Assembly: GCA_046292385.1 (NCBI GenBank)
Contig: JBKBRF010000010.1
Coordinates: 84,357 to 148,356 of the forward strand
Source of the DNA: Armatimonadota bacterium
GTDB lineage: Bacteria; Armatimonadota; SYMT01
Length of the DNA stretch: 64,000 nucleotides
Direction of reading: 5' to 3'
Every line of letters starts with the position of its first letter. Positions within the stretch are counted from its first letter, which is position 1. Position numbers and translations under genes: made by a program. Below the pieces are notes generated by a model. The model did not search any database and was not told where the DNA came from. It saw only the letters and a list, made by a program, of their open reading frames with translations. Shown here piece after piece: positions 1,208-58,221 of this stretch.

Positions 1208-1303
1208 GAGGTTCTCTCTCCTGAGGAGTGTTAGAGGTGGGACGCGTGCGGCTTCTCCGTCGTTCGGTCGTCCGGCGGGCCGTCCGGTTGCAGGAATCTT
1301 TTG

Positions 1304-4300: not shown

Positions 4301-4609
4301 GGCGGCGCGCCTCTCGCCCTCGCCGGAAGCGGTCCCCCGCAGCAGTACCACCGGCGCGGGCGTGGCCCCCAGCTCCGCCGACAGCTCGTCCGCCAGCACC
4401 GCCCGGAAGAAGCGGTCGCCGCCCGCCAGCACCTGCGAGACCCCGCCAATGCGAGAAAGCGCCAGCTCCGTCAGCGAGTGGCGAACCGAGTCCCCCACGG
4501 CCAGCGCGCCCACCAGAATGGCGGTGCTCAGGATCGCGCCGAGCAGCACGCCGAGGTGAGAGCGCCAGTGGAAGCGGAGACCGCGCAGGACGAGCGTTCG
4601 AAAAGTCAT
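1304..4609 (-). CDS. ABC transporter permease, FtsX/MacB-like (duplicated large periplasmic + TM domains)
   Basis: 1101 aa; two FtsX-type motifs (EQRSEEVGVLLALGF; ERRSELAVLRAVGF), multiple TM segments, C-terminal ALRSE. Confidence 0.9.
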   Translation of the reverse strand: MTFRTLVLRGLRFHWRSHLGVLLGAILSTAILVGALAVGDSVRHSLTELALSRIGGVSQVLAGGDRFFRAVLADELSAELGATPAPVVLLRGTASGEGERRAAQVQVAGVDERFWALAPGGRAPAGAEPDSVVLNERLAWKLGAKVGSEVLLRVEKPSLLSRDAPLSKTDDAAIAIRLPVSAIASDAEFGRFSLEANQIPPYSAFVPLERLQREIELEGRANVLLVGGAEVSTAASEKARQALARHWELADGSLEVRSVSGTQRAELRTDRVFLDDSVGQIAREAVPDARGVLTYFVNELRAGGRATPYSMVAAMEAPPGPADLRDDEIVLNEWLADDLQARAGDEVTLRYFVVGPMRQLEERAKTFRVREVVPIAGAAADRTLMPDFPGVSDAENCRDWEPGIPVNLDRIRDKDETYWDRYRGTPKAFVTLAAGQEMWKNRFGSLTALRFDPAGGGLDAARDRLRQELGPSTLGLFFTPVRQYALNAASQALDFGQLFLGFSFFLIAAALILAALLFGLGVEQRSEEVGVLLALGFTPARVRRLLLAEGAGIALLAAVLGAPLGVLYTQAVILGLSTVWRGAVAESPLRFHVEPLTLVGGAAAGFLVSLLTIWLVSRRQAQVPARALLASGAELEPEPAKKPGSRRGAPGVPTAVVCVLGAAALSGLALGATPQSAAGYFFGAGGLLLIAGIAVCRTLFARLEQRANPGGLSLSGLGIRNTVRRRGRSLAAVGLLACGSFLVIAVGANRHDPFAHAEERSSGTGGFAFYGETALPVYHDLGSAAGRDEFGLDGEELAGAQLVQLRMREGDEATCLNLNRAQTPRILGVQPAALAERKAFTFSQVDGNPRDPWRVLERTLPDGEIPAVGDVNTVVWSLGKGLGGTVVMLDDRGQPRTLRIVGVLSNSILQGGLLISEAHFTEAFPSSGGYRVFLVDAPREQAPAVAEELAYGLTDAGLDLTPAPERLALFGTVENTYLSIFAALGGLGLLLGSLGLGVIVLRNVLERRSELAVLRAVGFRGRALRWLIFSEHSLLLGLGLLVGIAAAVLAVLPALRSPGAEVPYVSLSLTLAAVLLTGLLWTWLATALALRGPLMSALRSE

Positions 4610-4617
4610 GCTGGAAA

Positions 4618-5559
4618 TCAGGCGTTCTGCGACAGGTGCCCCAGGAACTCGTCCAGCGTCGCCGCGGTGGCAGCCACGCGCTGAAGCTCCCGAAGCCGCT
4701 CCTGATCTCTGATCTGGTCGAGCCGATCGGAAACGGTAGCAGGGAGTGTTCCAAAGCGGGCCGTCAAAGTCTCAACCAGAGCATCGCGGAATCCACGCAT
4801 GACACCGATTCGCTCTACACTTGTGACGTAAGGCATCACCTGCTCCTCCTCGTACTCCGCGATCTCGGTTTCGAACCCGAGCTCCAGCTCCTCCGGCAGC
4901 GCCATCATCCAATCGATGAAACGGAAGACCTCGATGATCTGTTCCCGGGTGAAGCCGCGGTGGTACAGTCCTTTTACGATCCGCAGCTTCCACTGAAGCC
5001 TCGATTGGGGGTCGTTTCGGGTCGACTGCGTGCGCAGGTGCGCCATCACCACGGCAGCAAACAGGTTCCGGCTGCTCTCCAACTCCGCCCAGCGAGCCTC
5101 CCAATCGAGCAGCTTCACGACCGGGAACTGCAATCCGGCGCGGCAGCCCCAGAGGTGGTGCTCGAACCGATCCGGACGCCAATCCGGCTGTGTGTCGCCA
5201 AGAACCCCGATGCTCACGACCGGGCGCTGGTACCGGTCGAACAGCCGGTAGTTGTAAACATACATCCGCCGGGCGAAGCCGGCGTCGGGCTGGCTCTGGA
5301 CCTCGACGTGGATCAGGACCCACGCTTCCTCGCCTGAGAGCAGCCAGACCTTCGCGAGCTTGTCGACCACGCGCGGGCCCACCTTGGCGCGACGGACGAC
5401 CCTCTCCAGCTCCTTGTCCAGAAAGGTATACCCGCGCACCCAGTCGACTTCTGCGGCGGCTTCCGGAAAGAAGAGCCGGAAGAAGCCGGGGAACTCCAGC
5501 TCCAGAGCCTCTTTCCAGGGTCCGTCCAGCTCGTCCGCACGCACGCGTTGCCGGGCCAT
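4618..5559 (-). CDS. Rpn-like / putative-transposase PD-(D/E)xK nuclease with DUF4351-like C-terminus
   Basis: DGPWKEALE...FLDKEL...VDKLAKV...LIHVEVQSQ...FARRMYVYNYRLFDRY and C-terminal MPYVTSVERIG. Confidence 0.8.
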   Translation of the reverse strand: MARQRVRADELDGPWKEALELEFPGFFRLFFPEAAAEVDWVRGYTFLDKELERVVRRAKVGPRVVDKLAKVWLLSGEEAWVLIHVEVQSQPDAGFARRMYVYNYRLFDRYQRPVVSIGVLGDTQPDWRPDRFEHHLWGCRAGLQFPVVKLLDWEARWAELESSRNLFAAVVMAHLRTQSTRNDPQSRLQWKLRIVKGLYHRGFTREQIIEVFRFIDWMMALPEELELGFETEIAEYEEEQVMPYVTSVERIGVMRGFRDALVETLTARFGTLPATVSDRLDQIRDQERLRELQRVAATAATLDEFLGHLSQNA

Positions 5560-20077: not shown

Positions 20078-20833
20078 CTATCGCGGAGGAATCCCCAGCC
20101 AGCCGGCGGCCGCCTCCGCCAGCTCTTTCACGAGCGGGTCGACCGCCCACGGGTCGGCGTTTTCCAGGCGCAGGCAGACCGGGCCGTCGTAGCCCGCCAG
20201 GCGGAGGCGCTCTCCGAAGAGCGGTAGATCGAGCTCGCCTTCTCCGGGCGGCACCACCCGTCCGCGGAGCGCGTCGTTCAGGTAGACGCAGCGCGGCAGC
20301 TCCGGCAGGGCTTCCAGCTCCAGCGGGTCCCAGCCCGCGAGCAGCGCCTGGCCCGGGTCGAGCGCGATCCCGAACCGCCGTCTCCCGGCCGCGCGCAGGA
20401 TCTCCGCCAGCGCCCCCGGGTCGGCGGCCACGGTGCCGGCACGGTTTACCAGGCAGACGTCGACCGGCAGCGCGCCGAGCGCGCGGTCGAGCAGCCGCAG
20501 CCCCGCCGCCACCGCTTCCGGGGTGCCCTCGAAGGGGGCTTCGGTAATCAGCAGAGCGCTGTCCAGCTCCCGGGCATAGGAGGCAGCCCGGCCAATCGCC
20601 GCCAGGGCGGCTTCCCACTCCGGCCCCTCGGCCACCCTGGGCAGGGGCCCCGTGCGGACCGCCGCCAGCTCCAGCTCTTCGGCCCGCAGGCGCGCCCGCA
20701 TCGCCTCGACATCCGGGAACGGCTCTTCCGGCAGGTAGAGCTCCACGCCCGCGTACCCCGCCCATCCAGCCTTGGAGACGGCGGTCTCAATACGGTCCTC
20801 TGGGAAACAGGCGGTGGAACAGACAAGGCGCAC
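20078..20833 (-). CDS. Sugar phosphate isomerase/epimerase family TIM barrel
   Basis: AGYAGVEL, ALDPGQ, PPGEGELDL, GYDGPVCL; several metal ligands appear substituted. Confidence 0.7.
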   Translation of the reverse strand: MRLVCSTACFPEDRIETAVSKAGWAGYAGVELYLPEEPFPDVEAMRARLRAEELELAAVRTGPLPRVAEGPEWEAALAAIGRAASYARELDSALLITEAPFEGTPEAVAAGLRLLDRALGALPVDVCLVNRAGTVAADPGALAEILRAAGRRRFGIALDPGQALLAGWDPLELEALPELPRCVYLNDALRGRVVPPGEGELDLPLFGERLRLAGYDGPVCLRLENADPWAVDPLVKELAEAAAGWLGIPPR

Positions 20834-21025
20834 GCAGGATCTCCGAATCTCCGGTAAAAGGTTCCCTCAGCATACCATGGCCTCTGAGGGCGGGGTGCAG
20901 AGGACGGAGTGCGGAATTCGGATCTGCCGTGAACGAGATCGCTTGCTCCTGCTCGCTGGCGACCTGGTGCTTCCGGCACGTTTTAGCTACGGGTGGCCAT
21001 TGCCGGCCCGGACACCGGGCCGTGT

Positions 21026-21142
21026 CTGTCCCTCTGTCCCTCTGTCCCTCTGTCCCTCTGTCCCTCTGTCCCTCTGTCCCTCTGTCCCTCTGTCCCTCTG
21101 TCCCTCTGTCCCTCTGTCCCTCTGTCCCTCTGCCCCTCTGTC
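21026..21142. repeat. Octanucleotide tandem repeat (CTGTCCCT)n
   Basis: 13 perfect copies 21026-21129, one variant (ctgcccct), one partial; abuts the fhs stop codon. Confidence 0.97.
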
Positions 21143-22807
21143 TCAGAACAGCCCGGACATCGTGCCGTCCGGCAGCAGGTCCATCTCCACGGCGCTGGGC
21201 TGGCGGGGAAGGCCGGGCATCGTGAGGATCTCTCCGGCATAGACCACCACGAAGCCGGCCCCGGCCGAGAGGTGGAGGTCGCGGACGGTCAGGGCGTGGC
21301 CCTCGGGGGCGCCGTGGAGGGCGGGGTCGTCCGAGAAGGAGTACTGCGTCTTGGCGATGCAGACCGGGAGGCGGTCGTAGTGGTGCTCCTTCAGCCAGGC
21401 GAGGCGCTTGACGGCGGGAGGCAGAAAGCGGACCGAGCCGGCACGGTAGACTTCGCGCGCTACCGTCTCGATCTTCTCCGCCACCGGCGCGTCGTCGCGG
21501 TAGATCGCGTGGTACCCGGAGGGCGTCTGCAGCGTCTCCAGCAGCAGGTGCGCCACCTCTTCGCCGCCGGCGCCGCCGCGGCGCCAGACGTCGGCGACTC
21601 CCACCGGCAGATCGTGCTGCCGGCAGAGGTGCCGCAGGTGCTCCAGCTCCGCTTCGGTATCCGAGGGGAAGCGGTTCACCGCCACCAGGATCGGCAGGCC
21701 AAACTTCCGCAGGTTCTCGGCATGCCGCTGCAAGTTGGCGAAGCCGGCGTCGATCGCCTTCAGGTCCTCCTGGTCCAGCTCGTCCAGCGGCACGCCCCCG
21801 TGCATCTTGAGCGCGCGGACTGTCGCCACCAGCACGGCGGCATCCGGGTTCAGGCCCGCCTGGCGGCACTTGATGTCGAGAAACTTCTCCGCGCCCAGGT
21901 CGGCCCCGAAGCCCGCTTCGGTGAGGCAGATCTCGCCGAGCTTCAGCGCCATCCGCGTGGCGAGCACCGAGCTGCAGCCGTGGGCGATGTTGCCGAACGG
22001 GCCGCCGTGAACCAGCGCGGGGGTCCCCTCCACCGTCTGCACCAGGTTCGGCTTCAGCGCGTCCCGCAGCAGCACGGTCATCGCGCCGGAGGCCTTCAAC
22101 TCCCCGGCGGTCACCGGGCGGCCGGAGCGGTCCGAGCCGACGACGATGCGCGCCACCCGCGCGCGGAGGTCCTCCGCGGACTGCGCCAGGGAGAGCACCG
22201 CCATCACTTCGGAGGCGGCGGTGATCTCGAAGCCGGTCTCCCGCGGGTCGCCGTTCGCGCGCCCCAGGCCCACCACCACCTGCCGGAGGGAGCGGTCGTT
22301 CATGTCGAGGCACCGCTTCCAGGTGACGGTGCGCGGGTCGAGCTCCGGCTTCAGCCGCCAGTGGAGGTGGTTCTCCACCATCGAGGCGAGCAGGTTGTTG
22401 GCGGCGGTGATGGCGTGGAGGTCGCCGGTAAAGTGGAGGTTGATCTCCTCCATCGGCATCACCTGGGAGTAGCCGCCGCCGGTCGCCCCGCCCTTCATCC
22501 CGAAGATCGGCCCGAGCGACGGCTCTCGCGTGGCGGAGACGGCGCGGCTCCCGATCCGCTGCAGCGCCTGGGTGAGCCCCACCGTCATGGTGCTCTTCCC
22601 CTCGCCCGCGGGGGTGGGGGTGATCGCGGTCACCAGCACCAGCTTGCCGTCCGGCCGCTCCGCCCGCGCCTCCAGCGCTTCCAGCCGCACCTTCGCCTTG
22701 TGGCGGCCGTACAGCTCCAGCTCTTCCTCGTCCAGGCCGGCGGCGGTGGCGACCTCCAGGATCGGGCGCAGCTTCACGGAACGGGCGATCTCCAGGTTTC
22801 CACGCAT
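21143..22807 (-). CDS. fhs: Formate--tetrahydrofolate ligase
   Basis: TAITPTPAGEGKST, REPSLGP, KGGATGGG, HGGPFGNIAHG, TEAGFGADLGAEKF, MPGLP. Confidence 0.97.
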   Translation of the reverse strand: MRGNLEIARSVKLRPILEVATAAGLDEEELELYGRHKAKVRLEALEARAERPDGKLVLVTAITPTPAGEGKSTMTVGLTQALQRIGSRAVSATREPSLGPIFGMKGGATGGGYSQVMPMEEINLHFTGDLHAITAANNLLASMVENHLHWRLKPELDPRTVTWKRCLDMNDRSLRQVVVGLGRANGDPRETGFEITAASEVMAVLSLAQSAEDLRARVARIVVGSDRSGRPVTAGELKASGAMTVLLRDALKPNLVQTVEGTPALVHGGPFGNIAHGCSSVLATRMALKLGEICLTEAGFGADLGAEKFLDIKCRQAGLNPDAAVLVATVRALKMHGGVPLDELDQEDLKAIDAGFANLQRHAENLRKFGLPILVAVNRFPSDTEAELEHLRHLCRQHDLPVGVADVWRRGGAGGEEVAHLLLETLQTPSGYHAIYRDDAPVAEKIETVAREVYRAGSVRFLPPAVKRLAWLKEHHYDRLPVCIAKTQYSFSDDPALHGAPEGHALTVRDLHLSAGAGFVVVYAGEILTMPGLPRQPSAVEMDLLPDGTMSGLF

Positions 22808-48947: not shown

Positions 48948-51900
48948 TCAGGCCTCGAGGATCCGCGCGAGGGCGGAGAACTCGACCGGCTTCACCAGAT
49001 GGTAGTCGAACCCGGCCTCGCGGGAGCGGTCGCGGTCTCGCTGCTGCCCGTAGCCGGTCAGCGCCACCAGGCGCAGCCCGCTGCCGGTCTCGGCTTCCCG
49101 CTCCCGCAGCTGCCGCGCCACGGCGTAACCGTCCATCCCGGGAAGGCCGATGTCGAGCAAGACCACCTGCGGCGCAAATTCGCGCGCCACGGCGAGCGCC
49201 GACTGGCCGTCGTACACCACCCTCACTTCCGCGCCCCACATTTCCAGGATCTCGGCTAGGGTGTCGGCGCTGTCCTGATTGTCGTCCACCACCAGGATGC
49301 GTCTCGCTCCGGGCTCCGGGGCGGTCGCTGACGGGTCCTCGGCGTGCCGGCTCTCCGTGACCGGCGGCTCGAGCGCGCCGGCGAGGGCGACCTGCTCGCC
49401 GGCCGGCAGCCGGACGACGAACTCACTGCCCTTGCCGGGGCCGTCACTGTGCGCTGAAACCTCCCCGCCGTGCATCTCGACGAGCGTCCGGACCAGCGTG
49501 AGGCCGATGCCCAGGCCGCCCTGCGTCCGGTCCAGCGGTCGCTCCGTCTGCACGAAGAGCTCGAAGATGCGCGGCAGGTCGTCCGCCGTGATGCCGACCC
49601 CGGTGTCCCGCACGGAGATGGCGACCCACCGGTCCTCCGGCGTCACGCGCACCCAGATCTCGCCGCCGGGCTCCGTGTACTTGGCAGCGTTGGTGAGCAG
49701 GTTCGCCACCACCTGCTCGATGCGGGTGGCATCCACGCGCACGCGGATCGGCGCGTCCGGCAGCTCCACGTGCAGCGTATGGCCGCGGGCGTCGATCAGG
49801 GGGCGGGCGTCCTGGATCGCGTGGTGGACCACGCCGCCCAGCTCGGCCGGCTGGATCCTCAGCTCGATCTTTCCCCGCGTGATGCGAGAGACGTCGAGCA
49901 GGTCGTCCAGCAGCCGTCCCATGTGGGCGATCTGCCGCTCCAGCACCTCCCGCTCGTCGTGGAGCACGTCGTGCGGGAGCTGCCTCAACCGGATCAGCTC
50001 CAGGCTGTTGCGGATGGCGGCCAGCGGATTGCGAAGCTCGTGCGCCAGCATCGCGAGGAACTCGTCCTTGGTCCGGTCCGCTTCTTGCAGGTTGCGGAAG
50101 AGGCGGGCGTTGTCCAGCGCCAGCGCCGCCCGCCGCGCCAGCTCTTCCGCCAGCTCCAGATCCTGCCCGGTGTAGCTCCGCCCCGACTCGGCGTGGACCA
50201 GGGTGATCGTGCCGAGGATCCGCTCGCGCGCCTTCAGCGGCACCACGATATACGACCGGAGCTGCAGGCTGCGGATCAGCTCCAGGTGCTCGTCGTCCTG
50301 CGCCGCCTGCTCCAGCACCTCCGGCGGGATCTCCGCCATCATCTCGGACCGGCCACTGCGGGCGACGGCCGGCGCCCCGTACGGCGAGTCCTGCCGCGCA
50401 GGATACCGGCGCTGCAGCTCGTGGACCCAGCGCACCTTGGCCGGATCGGTGTGCGCGACGGCGAGCTGCCGCAGCGCTCCGTCCTCCTCCACCACGTGGA
50501 CCGAGCACCAGTCGGCCAGGGCAGGCACCATGAACTGCGCCACGGCGGCAAGCGTCTGCTCCCAGTCGAGGCTGGACGAGACGATCTCGCTCGCCTCGGC
50601 GACGAGCGAGGCCTGCCAGCGAGCGGCCTCGGCGCCGGCCCGCATCTCCCGCTGCTCTTCGTACAGCTCGGAGGTGCCGACCGCGGCGGACGCGAGGTTC
50701 GCCAGCGCCGCGCCGATCCGAAGCTCCAGCTCGGAGAAATGATGGGGCTGGCGGAAGTAAAGCGTGATGGTGCCGCGGAGCTCCCCGCGGATGCGGAGGG
50801 GCAGTACCAGCAGCGACTCGATCCCTTCGCGGCGGTAGCCTTCCTGCCGCTCCTTCACCAGCAGCGCTGCCCGCACGTCCGGAATGGCCACCGGGTCCTG
50901 CGGGAGCTGGTGGCTCTCGACCGGACGCAGCGCGCCCTGTTGATAGCCTTCCGAGAGACCCGAGGACGCCGCCATCTCCCAGGCGTCCCCGCCGGCCGGC
51001 AGCCGCCACACCGCGTAGGCATCCGCGGGAATCAGCGTTTGGGAGATGGTGATAAGCCGGGAGAGCACCTCATCAAGCTCCAGCGAGCCGAGCAGGGACG
51101 CGGACCCTTCCACGAGCAGCGTCAGGCCGCGCTCCAGCTCCTGGTGTAGGCGCAGTGCCGCTTCCCGGTCGGCCAGCGCCGCTTCCACTCGCTGGTAGAG
51201 ACGATGGCGCTCCACCGCCAGCCCGCACCGGCGGGCCAGGTCGGAAGCCAGGGAGACGTCCTCCGCGCCGAACGTGCGGTTCGGGTCGAGCGAGAAGAAG
51301 CCGATCACCCCGAGGAGACGCTCGTCGACCAGCAGCGGCACCGCCAGGTAGGAGGTCACGCCAATCTCGCGCAGCAGGCGCAGGTGCTCCGCGTCCCGGG
51401 CGGCCGCGATCCGGACCGCGTCGGTAATCTCTGAGTAGAGGACCGGCTGCTTCGAACGTACCACCACGGCGGAGCCGAAGGCGGCGTTGATGTCCGGCGG
51501 GTACCGTTCCGACAGCGCGCGGATCTGCTCCGACCGCGGGTCCGGCTCGAGCACGAGCGCCACCCGCCGCAGCCGCTGGGAGCCCACCGGCTCGTCGTCG
51601 ACCAGATCGATGAAGCATGCCGAGGCGATCGTCGGGACGGCCAGCCGGCTGACTTCCTGCAGGGTGCTCTCGACGTCGAGGGTGGAGGCGAGCGTGATGC
51701 TTGCTTCCAGCAGGAAGGTCAGATGGCGGCGCTGCCGCGTAAGATCCTCGTAGGCCTGGCGCAGCTCGTCCTGCTGGATCCGCAGCTCTTCTTCCACCTG
51801 CTGCAGCTCTTCGTGCTGACTCTGGAGCTCCTCGTGGGCGAGCTGCAAGCTCTCGGCCTGGCCGTCCGCCACCTGGCGCCGCTCCTCCGCCTCCTGCCGC

Positions 51901-52304
51901 AGCCGCTGCTCGGAGAGGAACAGCTCTTCGCGCTCGCGCTCGCTTTCCTGGAGTCTCGCCAGGCGCTGCTCGGCCTTCGCCTGCGCGGAGCGGACGGCGC
52001 CGTTCATCCGGGAGATCAGGACTCCCGTGAGCGCGTAGCCGGCCAGGCGCAGCCCGCCCGCGGTGCCGGCGAAGACCGGGTGCACCCCCGGGGGGTAGAT
52101 GAGCAGCACGCCGGCGGTGGTGAGCCCGGTGGAGAGGAGGCCAGGCCCCAGGCCGCCGCGCCACCCCGAGATCACGATCGCGAGGAGGCACGGCAGCAGC
52201 GGGATCGGGTCGACCGCCCCTCGGAACACCACCGTGACGCCCAGCGCGAGCGCCGACGCCGCCAGGGCCTCGATGTAGGGAGCGTAAGTACGAAAAATGC
52301 TCAC
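48948..52304 (-). CDS. Hybrid sensor histidine kinase (DUF4118-like TM, 3 GAF, HisKA, HATPase, receiver)
   Basis: FLAMLAHELRNPL, NLLTNAAKYT, GGLGIGL, C-terminal LLDIGLPGMDG receiver. Confidence 0.93.
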   Translation of the reverse strand: MSIFRTYAPYIEALAASALALGVTVVFRGAVDPIPLLPCLLAIVISGWRGGLGPGLLSTGLTTAGVLLIYPPGVHPVFAGTAGGLRLAGYALTGVLISRMNGAVRSAQAKAEQRLARLQESEREREELFLSEQRLRQEAEERRQVADGQAESLQLAHEELQSQHEELQQVEEELRIQQDELRQAYEDLTRQRRHLTFLLEASITLASTLDVESTLQEVSRLAVPTIASACFIDLVDDEPVGSQRLRRVALVLEPDPRSEQIRALSERYPPDINAAFGSAVVVRSKQPVLYSEITDAVRIAAARDAEHLRLLREIGVTSYLAVPLLVDERLLGVIGFFSLDPNRTFGAEDVSLASDLARRCGLAVERHRLYQRVEAALADREAALRLHQELERGLTLLVEGSASLLGSLELDEVLSRLITISQTLIPADAYAVWRLPAGGDAWEMAASSGLSEGYQQGALRPVESHQLPQDPVAIPDVRAALLVKERQEGYRREGIESLLVLPLRIRGELRGTITLYFRQPHHFSELELRIGAALANLASAAVGTSELYEEQREMRAGAEAARWQASLVAEASEIVSSSLDWEQTLAAVAQFMVPALADWCSVHVVEEDGALRQLAVAHTDPAKVRWVHELQRRYPARQDSPYGAPAVARSGRSEMMAEIPPEVLEQAAQDDEHLELIRSLQLRSYIVVPLKARERILGTITLVHAESGRSYTGQDLELAEELARRAALALDNARLFRNLQEADRTKDEFLAMLAHELRNPLAAIRNSLELIRLRQLPHDVLHDEREVLERQIAHMGRLLDDLLDVSRITRGKIELRIQPAELGGVVHHAIQDARPLIDARGHTLHVELPDAPIRVRVDATRIEQVVANLLTNAAKYTEPGGEIWVRVTPEDRWVAISVRDTGVGITADDLPRIFELFVQTERPLDRTQGGLGIGLTLVRTLVEMHGGEVSAHSDGPGKGSEFVVRLPAGEQVALAGALEPPVTESRHAEDPSATAPEPGARRILVVDDNQDSADTLAEILEMWGAEVRVVYDGQSALAVAREFAPQVVLLDIGLPGMDGYAVARQLREREAETGSGLRLVALTGYGQQRDRDRSREAGFDYHLVKPVEFSALARILEA

Positions 52305-52485
52305 CAGGGAAACGCTCGCGGGGATACTTGGGCCGCGTGGAGGGGCCGGAGAGCGGGGAGAGGGCTGCCTCCCAGTTTACCACGGGTGTCCGGCATCCCT
52401 CGTGGGATCTCTTTCCGGACTGTGCCGCAGTCCACATCCTCGCCGGGGAGCTCGACGCAAAGCGGAACGGAGGGAGGGGCGATGA

Positions 52486-52590
52486 GGGAGAGGAGAGGGA
52501 TGGGGGATGTGTGCTCGGCGCCGGGTGCCGCGGCGGCTCACGCGACGCAAGCCGCCGGCGCCTTCATCCCCCATCCCCCTCCTCTCTCCC
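52486..52590. repeat. Purine/pyrimidine inverted-repeat hairpin
   Basis: gggagaggagagggatgggggatg ... catcccccatccccctcctctctccc just downstream of the barrel gene. Confidence 0.65.
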
Positions 52591-52603
52591 TGCTTACACC
52601 TCC

Positions 52604-53326
52604 TCAGAACCCGACGTTCACCGCGATCCCGGGATAGCGGCCGCGGATCAGCAGCCCGCTGACGCTGTACCGGTCCCAGGAGTAGGTGACGAGCTGGTGG
52701 AAGGCGTGCCCGTCGAAGGTGGGCGTGACCGACCACTGGTCGCCGAGCCGGATTACCATGCCGAACGGATAGACCAGCTCATCGTCGAACGAGCCGTAGA
52801 GGACGCTGAAGTACGGAGCGATGGGGAGACCCGTCTCCCGCTCCAGGTCCTTGGAGATCGTGACGAAGTAGGCCCGGCCGTACGGCGTGCCGATCCGGTC
52901 CGACGAAGTGCCGACGCTCACTGCCGGGCGGGTGGCGGTTTCCCGCAGGAGCCGCCAGTTCACCAGCGGGCCGACGTCGTCCGCCAGCGGGTTGTACTCG
53001 ATGCCGACCTGCAGGTCCTGGCTCAAGCGGTACATCAGCGTGTTGCGCCACTTCGCCCGGTCGATCACCCCGTGGGGGATCACGCGGAGGCCGTAGTTGA
53101 AGCGTGTCGCCAGTAGGTTTCCTGAACCTCGCACGGAGGTTCCCTCGCCGGGTCAGCTCGGTCAGCTCGGGGCGGCCGAGCCGCCGGGGTTGGCCGGGTT
53201 CGGCGTGCCGGTCGGCGGGGCCGGGTGCTGATGCCCCGCGCCGGATTCGCCGGGAGGCGCCTGCGCGGCCGCCGGGGCCGCCAGCATCACGGCGGCGAGC
53301 GCCGCGGCGGATAGAAGTCTCTTCAT
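52604..53326 (-). CDS. Probable UxxU selenoprotein: secreted outer-membrane beta-barrel-like protein (240 aa, Sec55 and Sec58)
   Basis: GGAG RBS + ATG 53326, signal peptide MKRLLSAAALAAVMLAAPAAA; in-frame TGA at 53162-53164 and 53153-53155; same frame continues into ORF 52604..53134 ending GIAVNVGF. Confidence 0.75.
53124..53142 (-). promoter_or_regulatory. Putative bacterial SECIS hairpin
   Basis: mRNA GAACCUC-CGUGC-GAGGUUC starting 10 nt after the second UGA, with GU in the apical loop. Confidence 0.65.
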
Positions 53327-53424
53327 CAAACCAGTCTCCACAGGAAAACAAGGGTACTCCCGGGATGGGACGGGAGAAGTAAGGTGCCGCGCGAAGGCGG
53401 CAGCGCGAGCCGTCGACGCAGAGG

Positions 53425-53817
53425 TCAGGCCGCGGGAGGTCCCCGTGGGGCGCAGAGCCGGAGCGACGGCGGCTCGCGCGGCGGCACGCTCCGCGGGCGG
53501 AGCGGAAGGATGAGACCGGTGTCTCCTGGCGAGTATGCAACACCCGGCGCGGGCAGGACGGCCGGCTCGAGCGTCAGCCGGCTCCCGGCCAGGGTCTCCG
53601 ATTCGTCCAGGCGGAAGTAGCACCCGCACGCCGGCGCCTTTATCCGGGCGAGCGGCGCAGCGCCTTCCTCGCCCTCACCGCAGCAGCAGGCCGAGCGGGT
53701 CGGCGGCTCGCACTGCCGCCCGTCGGCGCAGAACCAGCCTCCGGACCAGGTCCAGAGCGAGGCGAGCAGCAGCGGAAGCTGCGCCCATCTCCGCAGGCGG
53801 TGGGCTAGGAGGCGCAT
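53425..53817 (-). CDS. DUF2946/CruR/CutF-like Cys-rich leader protein with C-terminal RGPP arrest motif
   Basis: Basic/hydrophobic N-terminus, C-x5-C...CCC...CGC, Pro-rich linker, ends LCAPRGPPAA*. Confidence 0.7.
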   Translation of the reverse strand: MRLLAHRLRRWAQLPLLLASLWTWSGGWFCADGRQCEPPTRSACCCGEGEEGAAPLARIKAPACGCYFRLDESETLAGSRLTLEPAVLPAPGVAYSPGDTGLILPLRPRSVPPREPPSLRLCAPRGPPAA

Positions 53818-53862
53818 CTGACTTTCAGATTAGCCCGTCTCCGACGGGGCCAAACAAGCGGT

Positions 53863-56010
53863 TCACGTTCCACCCGGCTTCGGCGCCGCCTCCGCCGGTC
53901 TCCACGCGAGCAGCCGGAGCCCGTTGAACACGACGAGGAGGCTGGCGCCCATGTCGGCGAAGACCGCCATCCAGAGCGTCGCCGCGCCGCCGAGCGCGAG
54001 CGCGAAGAAGACCGCCTTGATGCCGACGGAGAGGGCGATGTTCTGCGCCAGGATGCGCGCGGTCCGGCGGCTCAGCCGGATCAGCTCCGGCACCCCGCGC
54101 AGGTCGTCCCCCATCAGCGCCACGTCGGCCGTCTCCAGGGCGGTGTCGGTGCCGGCAGCGCCCATCGCGAAGCCGACCGACGCCCGGGCCAGCGCGGGCG
54201 CGTCGTTGATGCCGTCGCCGACCATCCCGACGTGCCGGTGCACCCGAAGTAGCTCCTCAATCGCCGCCAGCTTTTCCTCCGGCAGCAGGCCGCCGCGCGC
54301 GTCGTCGATCCCCACGTGCGCCGCCACCGCTTCGGCCGTCGCCCGGTTGTCGCCGGTCAGCATGACGGTGCGGACCCCCAGCGCGTGCAGCTCCCGCAGT
54401 GCCGCGGCGCTGTCTTCCCGGGGCTGGTCCGCCACTCCCAGCAGGAGCAGCGGCTCGCGCCCGTCGGAGAGGAGCACCGCGGTCTTTCCCTGCCGCTCCA
54501 GGGCACGCATCCGCTCGGCCGCCGCGGGGGTGGCAACGCCCAGCTCGTCCGCGAGGCGATGGTTTCCGACGTAGTAGCGCCGGCCGGCGATCTCGCCGCT
54601 CGCGCCGCGGCCGACCAGCACCTCGAACCGTTCCGCGGAGAGCAGGCCGGCCGGGTCGCCGCCGGTGGAGAGCCAGTGGGAGACGACGGCCCCCGCCACC
54701 GGGTGCTCCGAGTGGGCGTTCAGGCTGGCAGCGATCCGCAGCAGCTCCGGCGCGGGCGCGCCGTTGAGCGCAGCCAGGTCGGTGACCTCCGGCCGGCCGC
54801 GGGTGAGCGTGCCGGTCTTGTCGAGCGCCAGCACTCGCAGCCGCCGCACCTCCTCCAGGTAGACCCCGCCTTTGACCAGGATCCCCGCCCGCGCCGCGGC
54901 GGCGAGCCCGCTCACCACCGTCACCGGGGTGGAGAGGACCAGCGCGCACGGGCACGAGATGACCAGCAGCACCAGCGCGCGGTAGAGCCACTCCGGGAAC
55001 GAGGCCCCGAGCAGCAGCGGCGGAACGGTCGCCACTCCCACCGCGAGCGCCACGACCGCGGGGGTGTAAACGCGCGCGAAGCGGTCGATGGCGCGCTGGG
55101 TCGGGGCTCGCTGCGCCTGGGCCTCCTGGACGGAGCGGACGATGCGGTCGAGCGTGGTGTTCCCCCACGCCGCCGTCACCTCCACCTCCAGCACGCCGCG
55201 GCCATTCACCGTGCCGGCGAAGACCGGGTCGCCGGCGCCCTTCTCGGCCGGAATGCTCTCTCCGGTGATCGGCGCTTCGTCGACCGCCGAGCGGCCGGCC
55301 ACGACCGTCCCGTCGAGCGGCACCCGCTCTCCCGGCCGCACCCGCAGCACCGAGCCGGGCGGCACCTCCGCGGCCGGCACTTCCCGCCAGCCGCCGGGCG
55401 TGCGCAGTGTCGCCCGCTGGGGCGAGAGCTCCATCAGCGAGCGGACCGCATTCCGCGCGCGGTCGAGCGAATGAGCCTCGATCTCCTCCGCCAGCGCGAA
55501 GAGGACCGTAACCATCGCCGCCTCCGGCCACTCACCGATCGCGACGGCGCCGAGGATGGCGATCGACATCAGGAAGTTGATGTTGAGGGTGAACGAGCGG
55601 AGCGCGTAGAAGCCGCGGCGGAGCGTCTCGCGCCCGCCGATCAGGATCGCCGCCAGGGAGAGCAGCACCACCGGCGCGGAGGCCTCGGCGCCGGTGAGCC
55701 ACCCGGCCGATTCCGCCGCCAGCGCGCAGAGCCCCGCCGCCCCCAGCGGCACCCACTCTCGGAAGCGCGCGGCGGGCGCCTCCGACACGGTCTCCGAAGC
55801 CCCCGGGCCGCGGATCTCCGCCGCCATCCCGATCGACGCCAGTGCCGAGATCAGCTCCCGCTCGTCCGGCAGGCGGTGCTCCACCCGCACGTCGCGCTCC
55901 AGCAGGTTTACCTGCAGGTTCTCGATCCCACTGACCTTCGCCAGCCGCGCGCGGATCAGCTGCTCTTCGGTAGGGCAGCAGAGATCCGGAACGTGAAGGA
56001 CGGTGCGCAT
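53863..56010 (-). CDS. Heavy-metal-translocating P1B-type ATPase (ZntA/CadA-like)
   Basis: N-terminal HMA LCCPTEE, TGES, SCPC, DKTGT, SEHP, GDGINDAP, TM8 FADMG. Confidence 0.95.
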   Translation of the reverse strand: MRTVLHVPDLCCPTEEQLIRARLAKVSGIENLQVNLLERDVRVEHRLPDERELISALASIGMAAEIRGPGASETVSEAPAARFREWVPLGAAGLCALAAESAGWLTGAEASAPVVLLSLAAILIGGRETLRRGFYALRSFTLNINFLMSIAILGAVAIGEWPEAAMVTVLFALAEEIEAHSLDRARNAVRSLMELSPQRATLRTPGGWREVPAAEVPPGSVLRVRPGERVPLDGTVVAGRSAVDEAPITGESIPAEKGAGDPVFAGTVNGRGVLEVEVTAAWGNTTLDRIVRSVQEAQAQRAPTQRAIDRFARVYTPAVVALAVGVATVPPLLLGASFPEWLYRALVLLVISCPCALVLSTPVTVVSGLAAAARAGILVKGGVYLEEVRRLRVLALDKTGTLTRGRPEVTDLAALNGAPAPELLRIAASLNAHSEHPVAGAVVSHWLSTGGDPAGLLSAERFEVLVGRGASGEIAGRRYYVGNHRLADELGVATPAAAERMRALERQGKTAVLLSDGREPLLLLGVADQPREDSAAALRELHALGVRTVMLTGDNRATAEAVAAHVGIDDARGGLLPEEKLAAIEELLRVHRHVGMVGDGINDAPALARASVGFAMGAAGTDTALETADVALMGDDLRGVPELIRLSRRTARILAQNIALSVGIKAVFFALALGGAATLWMAVFADMGASLLVVFNGLRLLAWRPAEAAPKPGGT

Positions 56011-56275
56011 GATGAATCGGGCTACCGGGCGACGCTTACCTCCCTATTCTTACCGCTTACGCCTCGAACGTGGCGAGCGTTGGGGGTGTCCCTCGGCCGC
56101 TCTTCCGGCGAGACCGGATCAACCCGTCCGCTCTGGTGACCCACGTAGTCCGCCCCGGGCCTTGAGAGTTCTTCCCAGTATTCGCCTTCCCGGAGTTCAC
56201 TCACAGACAGAGCTGCCGATTCCACTCCGTGCACTCGGGATGGATGAAGATCGGTGGGAGCTACTTCTTACGCGG

Positions 56276-56395
56276 CCTCACCCCCGGCCCCTCTCCCGGG
56301 AGGAGAGGGGAGCTGTCGGTGTAGAGCTGATCAGGACCCCCCGTTCCACTTCCGGGAAGGCCTGTCCCCCGAACGAGGCAGGGCTGGGGGTGGGC
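56276..56395. repeat. REP-like pair (CCTCACCCC..CCCTCTCC..GGAGAGGGG type)
   Basis: cctcacccccggcccctctcccgggaggagagggg plus a degenerate inverted copy near 56361-56395. Confidence 0.6.
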
Positions 56396-56454
56396 CGCGT
56401 CGATCGGCGACCCTTCGCTGCTCTTCCGGAACTAACTTCAGGGCGGTGACGCGA

Positions 56455-56793
56455 CTAACGCGGGCCGGGCGGCTGGTCGTCGGCGTCGTTCTCCGGCCGG
56501 TCCGGGGCTCCCTCGCGGCGGAAGTCCCGGCTCTCCTGGCTGCCCCAGGGATCGGTCTCATCCGGAAGACCGGCGTGGGTGACTTCGATGCCGTTCGCCC
56601 GCTCCGGAGCGCGGTCGATCCGCTCCGTGTCGAGCAGCGGTTTGTCCTCCCGCTCCACCAGCGGGCCCGGGTAGTAGCTGCCGAAGCCTTCGCCCTCACC
56701 GGAGTCGACCGGCTCCCGGGCTTCCGGCTCCAGTTGGTCCCGGGTGTACTGCGGATTCAGCACTTCTTCGGCGTCCACGCGGCTCTGTGCCAT
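56455..56793 (-). CDS. Small acidic, probably disordered protein (112 aa)
   Basis: MAQSRVDAEEVLNPQY...; strong purine-rich RBS; tail of shadow ORF 56455..58356. Confidence 0.7.
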   Translation of the reverse strand: MAQSRVDAEEVLNPQYTRDQLEPEAREPVDSGEGEGFGSYYPGPLVEREDKPLLDTERIDRAPERANGIEVTHAGLPDETDPWGSQESRDFRREGAPDRPENDADDQPPGPR

Positions 56794-56814
56794 GCTCTCC
56801 CCCTTTTCTCCTGC

Positions 56815-56841
56815 GTACCCGGGTCCGGGAGCGGCCGAAAC
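56815..56841 (-). promoter_or_regulatory. SigB/SigF-type promoter candidate
   Basis: GTTTC-N16-GGGTAC upstream of 56793. Confidence 0.45.
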
Positions 56842-56937
56842 GGAGCCCTGCTCCGAAAGAAGGAACCGCGCGCCCTCTGGAGAAGGGGCAAGTAGCGTGA
56901 CACAGTGAGGTTCGCAGCTGTCTCGAGGAGGAGACCC

Positions 56938-58221
56938 ATGCCCGCACCCGACCTTTCCCGCCGTGAGCTGCTCAAGTCGGCCGCGCTTTCCGCAGGGGCG
57001 CTCGCGGCGACCTCCCTCGCTCCCCCCGCCGCCCACGGCGCGAACGACCGCCTCCGCTTCGCCGTGATCGGGTGCGGCGGGATGGGGGGTGGGCACCTGG
57101 GCGGCCTGATGCGCCGCGCGGAGGCCGACAACCTGCAGGTCGTCGCCGTGTGCGACGTCTACCAGCGGCGGCTCACCCGGGCCCGGGCCGCGAGCAGCAG
57201 CGACGGCTATCTCGACTACCGCAAGCTGCTGGAGCGTCCGGACATCGACGCCGTGCTGATCGCCACGCCGGACCACTGGCACGCGAAGATCGCCATGGAC
57301 GCGATGGAAGCGGGGAAGCACGTCTACTGCGAGAAGCCGATGACTCACACGGTGGAGCAGGCGATCGCGCTGCGCGACGCGGTCCGGCGGAGCGGCAAAG
57401 TGCTGCAGGTCGGGCCGAACGCCACCGCGAGCGACGGCTACTGGCAGGCTCACGAGGCGATCCGGAGCGGCCGGCTCGGCAAGGTCACCTGGGCCCAGGG
57501 GAGCTACAATCGGAACGCAAAGATCTGCCTCTTCAACGAGCACCAGAAGATCGACCCGACCGCCGGGCCGGGCAAAAGCGGGGAGGACTACGTCGACTGG
57601 GACATGTGGCTGGGCCACCGCTGGGGGCTGGCGCCGAAGATCCCCTGGAATCCGGAGCACTTCTTCCGGTTCCGGAAGTACTTTCCGTACAACGGCGGGG
57701 TGGCGACCGATCTCCTCTACCACAAGCTCGCGCCGCTGCTCATCGCCCTGGCGGGACCGAACGGGCAGTACCCCACCCGGGTCAATGCGAACGGGGGCCT
57801 CTACGTGGAAAAGGACGGGCGAGAGATCCCGGATACGTTCCTGATGACCGCCGATTACCCGGGCGAGTTCACCGTCTTTCTCGTCAGCACGCTCACGAAC
57901 GATGCCCAGCTTCCGGACCGGATCTACGGCAAGCTCGGCACCATGGATCTGGGCGGGGAGCCGCACCTGACCGTCAACGGCGAGCTGGTGGAGGAGTTCC
58001 GCGCCAAGAACGGCGGGCAGACCGAGGCGCGCCTGCCGCTGCAGCCGCGGCGCGACCTGGTGGGGAACTTCGTCGACGCGATCCGCGGAAAGGACCCGCT
58101 CCACTGCAACGCGGAGCTCGGCGCCGCCACCATGGTCGCCATCAAGATGGCGGTGGAGTCGTACCGGCAGAGCCGCACGATGCTCTGGGACGCGAAGCGG
58201 GAGAGGGTGGTGAAGGGATGA
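56938..58221 (+). CDS. Gfo/Idh/MocA family oxidoreductase (Tat)
   Basis: SRRELLK, IGCGGMG, ATPDHWH, VYCEKP. Confidence 0.93.
   Translation: MPAPDLSRRELLKSAALSAGALAATSLAPPAAHGANDRLRFAVIGCGGMGGGHLGGLMRRAEADNLQVVAVCDVYQRRLTRARAASSSDGYLDYRKLLERPDIDAVLIATPDHWHAKIAMDAMEAGKHVYCEKPMTHTVEQAIALRDAVRRSGKVLQVGPNATASDGYWQAHEAIRSGRLGKVTWAQGSYNRNAKICLFNEHQKIDPTAGPGKSGEDYVDWDMWLGHRWGLAPKIPWNPEHFFRFRKYFPYNGGVATDLLYHKLAPLLIALAGPNGQYPTRVNANGGLYVEKDGREIPDTFLMTADYPGEFTVFLVSTLTNDAQLPDRIYGKLGTMDLGGEPHLTVNGELVEEFRAKNGGQTEARLPLQPRRDLVGNFVDAIRGKDPLHCNAELGAATMVAIKMAVESYRQSRTMLWDAKRERVVKG

Follow-up and report, generated by a model that had tools for sequence, protein, structure and literature searches.

CruR of Bordetella pertussis (Bp2923, DUF2946) is a small exported protein with a CXXC motif 45 residues before a C-terminal RAPP, and it halts its own synthesis; when the CXXC senses copper, the arrest is lifted and the genes downstream are switched off (Roy et al. 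2022, PMC9426467). RAPP and RGPP have been described as causing a robust arrest that is not relieved by EF-P and as being avoided in proteomes, with an enrichment towards the C-terminal end of small exported proteins whose genes precede those for metal homeostasis and thioredoxin-domain proteins (Fujiwara et al. 2025, PMC12992588). Exported proteins of the UxxU (seleno)protein family NF041115, in turn, carry two selenocysteines (Sec, U) in a U-x-x-U motif and are encoded in metal neighbourhoods (PMC13188914). Here we describe a locus with features of both kinds in a 64,000-nucleotide stretch of an Armatimonadota genome (assembly GCA_046292385.1, contig JBKBRF010000010.1), referred to below as the window: three minus-strand genes that encode a heavy-metal ATPase, a Cys-rich protein ending in RGPP, and a predicted outer-membrane (OM) barrel with two in-frame UGA codons ahead of the barrel domain.

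The Cys-rich open reading frame (ORF) resembles CruR and the RAPP/RGPP class in having an export signal and a Cys motif tens of residues before R-(A/G)-P-P, and in both cases the protein is encoded first, 5' of outer-membrane, metal or thioredoxin genes (PMC9426467, PMC12992588). CruR has one CXXC at a spacing of 45 in the published description, whereas the ORFs analysed here have a Cys cluster (W-x-C-x-x-G-x-x-C, CCCG and CGCY) at a spacing of 52-63. Moreover, CruR stands at the head of its array, before a TonB-dependent transporter, while the window ORF lies behind the ATPase gene and before the selenoprotein barrel gene, and its arrest is predicted. The barrel protein shares with NF041115 the two Sec in U-x-x-U, export and metal neighbourhoods (PMC13188914), but the motif of NF041115 lies in an HMA fold and that of the barrel protein in a short hairpin loop before the membrane barrel. 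The family table of that 2026 review gives three UxxU families (Prx-like, NF041115 and FmdB) and one OM barrel (MtrB/PioB). Word searches of PMC13188914, PMC9312934 and PMC12013277 (deep-Sep) gave nothing like the barrel family, and word searches of the open-access literature, which are not proof of absence, returned no description of a UxxU barrel selenoprotein family. In NCBIfam release 20, which holds many curated selenoprotein families, neither the motif nor the barrel found a match in its Sec or Cys forms; a single match to the whole barrel protein (E 0.014, 16.4 bits vs a cut-off of 44) was rejected as chance. No Pfam model exceeded its cut-off for the barrel protein.

A third point of comparison is the periplasmic reductase TlpA, which keeps the copper-binding Cys pairs of ScoI and CoxB reduced. 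In most of the loci described below, a TlpA/ResA-like thioredoxin is likewise paired with a putative two-chalcogen metal site in the periplasm, but the presumed client is fused to the reductase, is Sec-Sec and is part of an OM barrel. No such fused Sec-Sec barrel client of TlpA was met in the parts of the literature surveyed.

Two in-frame UGA codons in the barrel gene

The three genes are ORFs of 715 aa (53863-56010) and 130 aa (53425-53817) and an ORF starting from the ATG at 53326, all on the minus strand of a window with a G+C content of about 70%. An earlier note on this DNA, made from the letters alone, had described a co-oriented trio with gaps of 45 and 98 nt. Re-reading of the minus-strand ORFs bore this out, the shorter gap lying between the ATPase gene and the Cys-rich ORF and the longer one between the Cys-rich ORF and the barrel gene. 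All three genes end in TGA.

The barrel gene (52604-53326, minus strand, 240 aa) is preceded by a Shine-Dalgarno sequence, GGAG (53335-53338), 9 nt 5' of the ATG. Its product starts with a signal peptide read from the translation (MKRLLSAAALAAVMLAAPAAAQA, 53258-53326), whose helix (residues 6-16) has low pLDDT in the structure model described below; signal-like N-termini are also found in relatives. GHQH is encoded at about 53225-53236. A linker leads to U55-P-S-U58 (53153-53164), in which Sec55 and Sec58 correspond to in-frame TGA codons at 53162-53164 and 53153-53155, and the frame continues unbroken past both of them to the final TGA at 52604-52606. Both Sec codons lie within a perfect 9-nt tandem (GGTCAGCTC twice, 53151-53168) that encodes S-U-P-S-U-P. 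Since other lineages read U-P-G-U-P-G, the motif may have been born by duplication of a U-P-x unit.

Conservation of this site was assessed in two samples. Species-representative genomes contained 481 candidate stretches, of which 471 were confirmed; the best 80 of these were fetched and, together with the window, form a genome set of 81 loci, most of them titled Pyrinomonadaceae. The second, separate sample consists of 46 metagenome loci on mostly short contigs (median 4.5 kb). Every one of the 121 loci that reach the site keeps U/C-x-x-U in frame (78 genome and 43 metagenome loci; L003 and L075 are cut by contig ends before it). The genome loci divide into 72 with Sec at both positions and 6 with Cys at the first, within the motif (V/A)PS-U/C-P-x-U-PGE(G/S). 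All 43 metagenome loci read U-x-x-U-PG(E/H)G, including U-S-G-U, U-T-G-U and U-V-G-U forms at 34-44% identity. Metagenome-assembled genomes (MAGs) from Armatimonadota, Xenobia/Vulcanimicrobiota, Pyrinomonadaceae, Planctomycetota and Verrucomicrobiota all contribute to this set. In close relatives the second site never held Cys. When 1.84 billion representatives were searched with a profile, 301 proteins came back at E <= 0.001; in distant homologues among the 20 longer matches fetched (P0200, P0215, P0243 and others), PTCAGCAGEAR, a CxxC motif, stands at the aligned place before the barrel. Exchange of Sec and Cys at a conserved site has been described as a mark of true selenoproteins (PMC12013277).

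The TGA pair is not an assembly error, since the same in-frame pair occurs in 78/78 genome and 43/43 metagenome loci. Contigs from two other sequencing runs span the Sec site without gaps (52934-53338 and 53005-53155), and near-identical DNA is present in sequencing runs of other studies. The four runs compared consist of assembled contigs, in which depth and contig ends are uninformative; apparent joints with high depth at 54146-54383 and 54741-54859 were discarded as conserved P-type ATPase motifs of other organisms.

A hairpin resembling a selenocysteine insertion sequence (SECIS), GAACCUC-CGUGC-GAGGUUC (53124-53142, minus strand), follows the second UGA after 11 nt and the first after 20 nt. 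An 11-nt distance from UGA to hairpin is the rule established for E. coli fdhF. An ungapped alignment of 60 nt from the first UGA was made from 77 distinct sequences, many of them from related Pyrinomonadaceae. It contains a 7-bp stem (columns 23-29 with 35-41) and a 5-nt loop in which U32 is invariant and G31 nearly so. Pairing is observed in 84.4% of the stem cells vs 22.8-62.3% with slid partners, and compensatory changes are found at pairs 24-40 (CG 32, UA 29, UG 6, AU 4), 25-39 (CG 56, GC 4, GU 5, AU 3) and 28-36 (GC 59, CG 4, UA 3, GU 7). The covariation score of the hairpin was reached by none of 500 shuffles, and RNAalifold independently predicted the same structure. In the reading frame, column 24 falls on the wobble position of a Gly codon and column 40 on the first position of a codon, so that in our reading protein conservation does not account for the covariation. 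This single SECIS element, placed 11 nt after the second UGA, would recode both UGA codons as Sec.

The loop of the hairpin contains the GUG (53132-53134) that serves as start codon in the shortened annotation. As this false start is the loop of the gene's own SECIS element, the barrel is annotated as a shortened protein without a signal peptide. For the 176 aa that follow the second TGA, 1165 of 1239 candidates (clusters at 90% identity) were homologues at E <= 0.001. Of these 1165, the best 120 are 143-187 aa long and many begin with M or V followed by RG(S/A); homologues thus start at the same place, indicating that gene callers everywhere stop and restart there. In eight clusters checked for names, just two members were named, both 'hypothetical protein'.

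In line with Sec insertion, the genome that carries the window (98% complete, 91 contigs) encodes SelA (7.7e-146), SelB (367 bits, above cut-off) and SelD with one in-frame TGA, and a tRNA-Sec gene lies beside selD and selA. SelA was detected in 5/5 other carrier genomes, from five lineages, vs 2/14 control genomes. TGA is also the ordinary stop codon of all three genes; UGA use in the barrel gene is SECIS-dependent recoding and not an altered code. The tRNA-Sec, selD and selA genes stand side by side at G000:C11:87434-89894 (G000 being the window's own genome), SelD itself being a selenoprotein, and a second, shorter tRNA-SeC was called by ARAGORN at C77:16947-17029.

The structure of the barrel protein was modelled with AlphaFold2 (AF2) from a 62-row alignment. 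The model (mean pLDDT 80.9; 87-96 over residues 71-240) has 12 long strands in the domain encoded at 52607-53128 (minus strand), which ends in ...NVGF, and U-P-S-U-P-G-E-G lies between the two short strands of a hairpin (residues 51-53 and 64-66). Top Foldseek matches are FapF, NanC and KdgM. A VIA search, which does not depend on Foldseek, gave Z scores of 16.1 for the COG4313 channel (4rl8), 16.1 for FapF (5o65) and 15.9 for KdgM, with an rmsd of 2.3-2.8 over 152-166 residues; autotransporter beta-domains followed at Z 13-15 and PcoB, a copper-related barrel, at Z 8.7. In the ESM Atlas the barrel is related to YjbH/BcsS-type proteins (TM 0.84 to a YjbH cluster), and the corresponding Pfam model PF06082 remained below its gathering score (E 0.011, 15 bits vs 24). 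FapF, 4rl8, KdgM/NanC and the autotransporter beta-domains have the same fold as the barrel modelled here at 7-17% identity. We know of no selenocysteine or CxxC ahead of the barrel in any of these 12-stranded comparison proteins.

In view of the signal peptide, the 12 strands, the C-terminal ...VGF with its aromatic last residue and the fold matches, the gene product is with high probability a small 12-stranded OM barrel, and we are equally confident that 52604-53326 encodes a single Sec-containing secreted protein that includes this barrel. The Sec barrel proposed in the earlier note is borne out by the UxxU motif in 121/121 loci, the covarying hairpin, the Sec machinery and the predicted OM fold. 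The family it belongs to is genuine and widespread and apparently an undescribed family of double-Sec outer-membrane proteins.

The ATPase and the Cys-rich ORF ending in RGPP

The first gene (53863-56010, minus strand) encodes a 715-aa protein in which Pfam recognizes E1-E2_ATPase (1.2e-55), Hydrolase (3.2e-33) and, marginally, HMA (24.7 bits vs a cut-off of 24.8). It scores 586 with TIGR01525 (cut-off 346) and 514.9 with TIGR01512, ATPase-IB2_Cd (cut-off 313.5); with the Cu model TIGR01511 it scores 391, just under the cut-off of 397. The motifs CCPTEE (55963-55980), CPC (in SCPCAL, 54940-54957), DKTGT (54808-54822), N-x7-K (53998-54042) and D-x-G (53941-53958) were located, of which CPC, N-x7-K and D-x-G are what we take to be the signature of the P1B-2 (Zn/Cd/Pb) subtype. 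An assignment to this subtype had been made before, and the subfamily hidden Markov model TIGR01512 agrees with it. Like the ZntA/CadA-type P1B-2 ATPases, the protein passes the subfamily cut-offs and has the three signature motifs; it differs from them in missing the ZntA equivalog cut-offs (572 vs 1005 and 499 vs 1240) and in having CCPTEE instead of GMxCxxC at the N-terminus. Judged by its family, it appears to be an ordinary P1B-2 pump, a ZntA-like ATPase that in all likelihood moves Zn/Cd/Pb-type ions from the cytoplasm to the periplasm. Soft-metal ligands had been noted in each of the three genes, and all of them were recovered: the ATPase has CCPTEE and CPC, the middle ORF has 8 Cys, and the barrel protein has HQH and U-P-S-U.

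The middle gene (53425-53817, minus strand) encodes an exported Cys-rich protein of 130 aa that ends in ...PRGPPAA and is a candidate CruR-like arrest peptide. The RGPP (codons at 53434-53445) occupies residues 125-128, 2 residues before the stop. Homologues were found just 5' of the barrel operon in L001 (4110-4535) and L002 (3583-4014). These proteins are 130-143 aa long, and W-x-C-A-x-G-x-x-C, CCCG, CGCY and the C-terminal RGPP are invariant in 3/3. A second sequence type with a Cys-rich LCCxxxxCCCC and also ending in RGPP is present in L008, L009, L010 and L093, the last assigned to the L008 type by sequence, and a third type (GWTVCINSGAC..., ending in RAPPINS) in L121 and L122. In the six RGPP ORFs that were measured (window, L001, L002, L008, L009 and L010), the gene is on the strand of the barrel gene, 2-6 residues separate the motif from the stop, and the Cys cluster lies 52-63 residues before the Arg. 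Export signals of the R(A/G)PP ORFs, a basic n-region followed by a hydrophobic stretch, were read by eye.

Neither Pfam, even at E 10, nor NCBIfam yielded a match for the Cys-rich ORF, and eight such ORFs matched 0 families at E up to 10, DUF2946/CruR (PF11162) included. A word-seeded homologue search returned only the ORF itself, and a pattern scan of genome contigs gave 600 pattern matches with 0 confirmed, the relatives listed above being known only from reading 5' of barrel genes. R-(A/G)-P-P near the C-terminus of a small protein (<300 aa), a feature of the arrest-peptide class, is present.

The earlier note had called this gene a metal-sensing stalling leader. The export signal, the Cys cluster, the C-terminal RGPP and the upstream position match the published hallmarks, and by this analogy the gene is credibly a CruR-like arrest-peptide gene of a new sequence family; the term leader did not stand, the product being a conserved 130-aa protein and not a short leader. 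Translation of the ORF would arrest at the RGPP with the Cys cluster just outside the exit tunnel, and metal bound to the nascent cluster would alter the arrest, as in CruR. We regard this step as evenly poised, and the same applies to its continuation, in which the arrest would set the expression of the barrel gene through mRNA structures around the stop codon of the ORF.

Two such structures were predicted. An imperfect hairpin over the last codons and the stop (53397-53485, minus strand; arms 53397-53419 and 53463-53485, 83% complementary) appears in both the minimum-free-energy and the centroid fold (201 nt, z -3.1), and an arrested ribosome would sit in its loop. A small terminator-like hairpin in the 98-nt gap (53385-53402, minus strand; 6 pairs, tail CCTTACTTCT) shares positions 53397-53402 with the larger one; the terminator-like scan found 2 sites vs 1.2 expected, and support for this hairpin is weak. 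The overlap suggests an attenuation-type switch, as a lead only.

Alternatively, the Cys-rich ORF could be a membrane-anchored periplasmic metal-binding protein or chaperone, with the RGPP incidental or a sorting tag. A length of 130-143 aa with several conserved Cys motifs exceeds that of classic leaders and fits such a role, as do the variable distance to the next gene, the lack of a DUF2946/CruR match and the presence of the ORF in only 9/122 loci. We consider it unlikely all the same. Three unrelated sequence types share an R(A/G)PP 2-6 residues from the stop, each time in an ORF upstream on the same strand, and the spacing from Cys to R is held at 52-63 residues although the intervening sequence is unconserved. 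Moreover, given the reported proteome-wide avoidance of RGPP and RAPP, a conserved terminal copy is unlikely to be neutral (PMC12992588). On the arrest-peptide interpretation, which we prefer, the locus would combine stalling with Sec recoding, as the earlier note had proposed: recoding is supported by the SECIS covariation, and the predicted stalling by the hallmarks of arrest.

Related ORFs were observed elsewhere. A second double-Sec gene is present in L001 (6613-7161, minus strand), in L002 (2970-3500, plus strand) and in the window's own genome (G000:C8, about 20600-22720). Its product is an exported HMA/MerP-like protein with G(V/A)T-U-A-T-U-G, and these copies belong to the NF041115 family with matches below cut-off (36.6-37.9 for L001 and L002 vs 95). 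A Cys-rich ORF of 162 aa with RAPP at its end precedes the gene, and a gene for an outer-membrane protein ending in ...FAFETFF follows it; contig C8 has the same trio of RAPP ORF, double-Sec HMA gene and OM protein gene. A third Cys-rich ORF of the genome (G000:C3:192715-193254, plus strand) ends in ...SRAPPASER and has CCCG and CGC motifs, with a secreted YHS-like ORF about 4 kb 3' of it (about 197136-197712).

Genomic context and possible role of the barrel

The barrel occurs in four architectures. Apart from the signal peptide, nothing precedes the motif in the window, L005, L008 and others; a YHS domain does so in L001, a YHS domain and a TlpA-like thioredoxin in Xenobia-type loci, and a Cys-rich domain (GQVVCCxxCW) and a TlpA-like domain in Pyrinomonadaceae. 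In L002 and L121, YHS-TlpA has a gene of its own beside the barrel gene, and in L009 a YHS/TlpA-type match lies just 5' of the barrel gene. Such a match within 5 kb, fused to the barrel or adjacent to it, is the commonest partner, being found at 93/127 loci (62/81 genome and 31/46 metagenome loci), and Cys-form relatives have 1-2 scored YHS stretches each. All-against-all clustering of 748 ORFs from the 81 genome loci revealed no other neighbour common across phyla.

Of the 81 genome loci, 26 have at least one gene of metal type less than 5 kb from the barrel gene. These neighbours comprise a divergent cation diffusion facilitator (CDF) gene in 17 loci, a CYCXC (seleno)protein in 11 (the L062 copy being NF041379, 103 bits vs a cut-off of 90), a P1B ATPase in 5, a CusA/CzcA-type resistance-nodulation-division (RND) gene in 5 (the L020 copy being TIGR00914, 810 bits vs a cut-off of 701), a membrane-fusion protein in 4 and a UxxU-HMA selenoprotein in 2. 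As a rough background, about 2.3% of positions in the window's own genome are within reach of a metal-type gene, and five Pyrinomonadaceae genomes have 3-5 CDF genes each. Together with the fused YHS domains, this neighbourhood analysis supports the link between barrel homologues and metal loci that had been proposed from the window alone.

Two observations on these loci are added. A same-strand array (about 1-5500) in Pyrinomonadaceae MAGs (L060, L062 and L068) consists of a P1B ATPase gene (copper type by score in L062), an unknown 237-aa ORF and a CYCXC-family gene, and continues with a divergent CDF gene and a gene for the Cys-rich-TlpA-UPLU-barrel protein. Furthermore, the carrier contigs of L002, L005, L010, L012, L013, L056 and L067 are titled as Actinomycetota, Burkholderiales, Selenomonadaceae or Clostridia MAGs; they closely resemble loci of Xenobia, Armatimonadota and Acidobacteriota, and some of the bins may therefore be mislabelled or contaminated.

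We favour, by a modest degree, the reading of the locus as a cell-envelope soft-metal module. In this module the barrel protein would consist of a 12-stranded OM barrel that carries a U-P-x-U hairpin loop at its N-terminal end, and a TlpA-like partner, often with YHS or Cys-rich domains, would keep the diselenide reduced in the oxidizing periplasm. The two selenolates might then bind thiophilic ions (Cu(I), Zn, Cd) at the mouth or in the lumen of the barrel, for passage or capture, a step to which we give slightly less than an even chance. More speculative, and on present evidence doubtful, is the extension of this idea to an OM channel with a diselenol gate or site that is kept reduced by the fused TlpA and forms a selenium-dependent last step of metal efflux; here the barrel would capture Cu, Zn, Cd or Hg-type periplasmic ions and hand them through the outer membrane. 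Of the functional readings, a putative metal-handling role of the UxxU barrel is the best supported, with a purely redox role as its main rival.

A number of observations weigh against the module. The three genes, presented in the earlier note as one system, are not co-conserved: a P1B ATPase lies near the barrel in just 5/81 loci, and L007 and L062 score as copper type (the two that were subtyped among the four P1B loci other than the window, L007, L060, L062 and L068). An R(A/G)PP ORF is present 5' of the barrel gene in just 9/122 loci, and metal-type neighbours in 1/46 metagenome loci, where contigs are mostly short. The trio is a local arrangement and not a conserved operon. The 81 genome loci are phylogenetically clumped, so that their counts are not independent events, and within 5 kb of the window barrel gene there is no TlpA/YHS gene. 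The distance from the Cys-rich ORF to the next gene is 98 nt in the window, 76 in L001 and 18 in L002, and as it varies, no single attenuator structure is conserved. CruR-type operons, moreover, serve mostly copper uptake and not efflux, as described in PMC9426467. The window hairpin taken alone (-17.2 kcal/mol, z -0.89) is no stabler than shuffles, support for it being comparative, and in Xenobia-type rows the fitting register is displaced by 1-3 nt. In the AF2 model, the U-x-x-U segment has a pLDDT of just 57-73. Several fold matches align from model residue 51-58, the plug or pore-threading segment in FapF and autotransporters, which hints that the UxxU loop is at or in the pore, a guess from the aligned ranges. 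One metatranscriptome library contains a 335-nt contig over 52789-53123 with one difference; it covers part of the barrel gene only, stops short of the UGA codons and of every gene junction, and shows presence in an RNA library only. Finally, we infer Sec insertion, and likewise the arrest and the binding and transport of metal.

The strongest competitor, in our view unlikely, is that the barrel is a redox device in which UxxU cycles between diselenide and diselenol and is recharged by the TlpA-like domain. It would reduce peroxide, an oxidized envelope protein or a metalloid oxyanion at the outer membrane, and the metal genes nearby would reflect oxidative stress driven by metals. A TlpA/ResA-like thioredoxin with intact CxxC is the commonest partner of the barrel, UxxU is placed where the redox CxxC stands in Cys-form relatives, L001 has a DsbB-like gene, and most prokaryotic selenoproteins are redox proteins according to two reviews (PMC9312934, PMC13188914). 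Yet no catalytic fold is joined to the motif, only the membrane barrel, and metal-binding YHS domains are fused to it in several lineages and recur as 1-2 stretches in Cys forms. CDF, P1B, CusA, CYCXC and UxxU-HMA genes near 26/81 loci and an upstream CruR-like ORF, Cys-rich and with R(A/G)PP, likewise argue for metals.

Distinctly improbable is a third possibility, that the barrel is an uptake or delivery channel for a scarce thiophilic metal or selenium, from which YHS and TlpA domains pass the cargo to periplasmic chaperones. TlpA has a role in copper-centre assembly, and the copper-type P1B ATPases near L007 and L062 could serve the loading of cuproproteins. The R(A/G)PP ORF would then silence the gene under ample metal supply, in the manner of CruR and its TonB-dependent copper importer, and CruR does head copper-acquisition operons with AhpC_TSA-type genes (PMC9426467). 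The neighbours point the other way: the window ATPase is a Zn/Cd/Pb exporter by family, the metal neighbours met most often are efflux genes of the CDF and CusA/CzcA types, and UxxU-HMA/MerP-like and SO_0444-type efflux genes occur in L001 and L002. That the TGA codons are true stops, leaving a 54-aa secreted peptide and a separate 176-aa protein from the GTG at 53134, or a decayed pseudogene, is how every gene caller reads the gene and would suit both the 143-187 aa of the best 120 of 1165 homologues (the named ones being 'hypothetical protein') and the use of TGA as normal stop in all three genes, but this is hardly credible, as frame and peptide are conserved across both TGAs and from the second TGA to the GTG in 121/121 loci, the first U is a Cys in 6 loci and both are in distant relatives, the barrel would lose its signal peptide despite its outer-membrane fold, the GUG taken as a start belongs to the conserved loop of a hairpin that covaries, and Sec machinery is present.

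If the more speculative diselenol channel is true, annotation would have missed an efflux step common among soil bacteria of the Acidobacteriota, Armatimonadota, Xenobia, Planctomycetota and Verrucomicrobiota, and some lineages would stack two translational recoding events, a metal-sensing RGPP arrest upstream and a double UGA-to-Sec recoding by one SECIS element. The mis-annotation is systematic, extending over 1165 clusters at 90% identity, with 471/481 stretches confirmed. The family adds double-Sec proteins to the prokaryotic selenoproteome in phyla little studied for selenium use, and its hundreds of carriers include soil and hot-spring bacteria. UxxU sites, TlpA-type periplasmic reductases and small OM barrels, known separately before, are united in one polypeptide, which suggests how diderm bacteria might use selenolates for metals in an oxidizing envelope. 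The Cys-rich R(A/G)PP ORFs, for their part, would extend the CruR idea beyond DUF2946 and to selenoprotein genes.

Sequences flanking the three genes

Directly 3' of the barrel-gene stop lies a long terminal hairpin (52473-52605, minus strand) with arms at 52488-52509 and 52565-52586 (22 nt each, 95% complementary), in agreement with the inverted repeat reported there before. Folded as a 137-nt RNA it reaches -93 kcal/mol vs -61.9 +/- 4.4 for shuffles (z -7.1; equalled by 0/200), and it is single copy in the genome. It has no U-tract and was not scored as an intrinsic terminator in the terminator scan; it probably marks the transcript end or acts as a stabilizer. Rfam gave 0 matches at gathering scores in the whole window, and at E up to 10 over 50000-58000 just chance matches of microRNA models to the terminal hairpin, far below gathering scores.

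Beyond the hairpin, a 1118-aa ORF (48948-52304, minus strand) has an H-box AMLAHELRNPL and a receiver-like C-terminus and reads by eye like a hybrid sensor histidine kinase. The locus comparison showed no conserved link between this ORF and the barrel gene.

On the other side, 4 candidate ORFs were found 5' of the ATPase gene (56011-56900), none with a Pfam family, and a scan for sigma-70-like promoters over 52200-56400 gave 0 sites. The long gap 5' of the ATPase gene also holds an element of about 55-60 nt (56258-56327) that has dozens of genomic copies at 85-97% identity and looks like a dispersed repeat of the REP (repetitive extragenic palindromic) kind.

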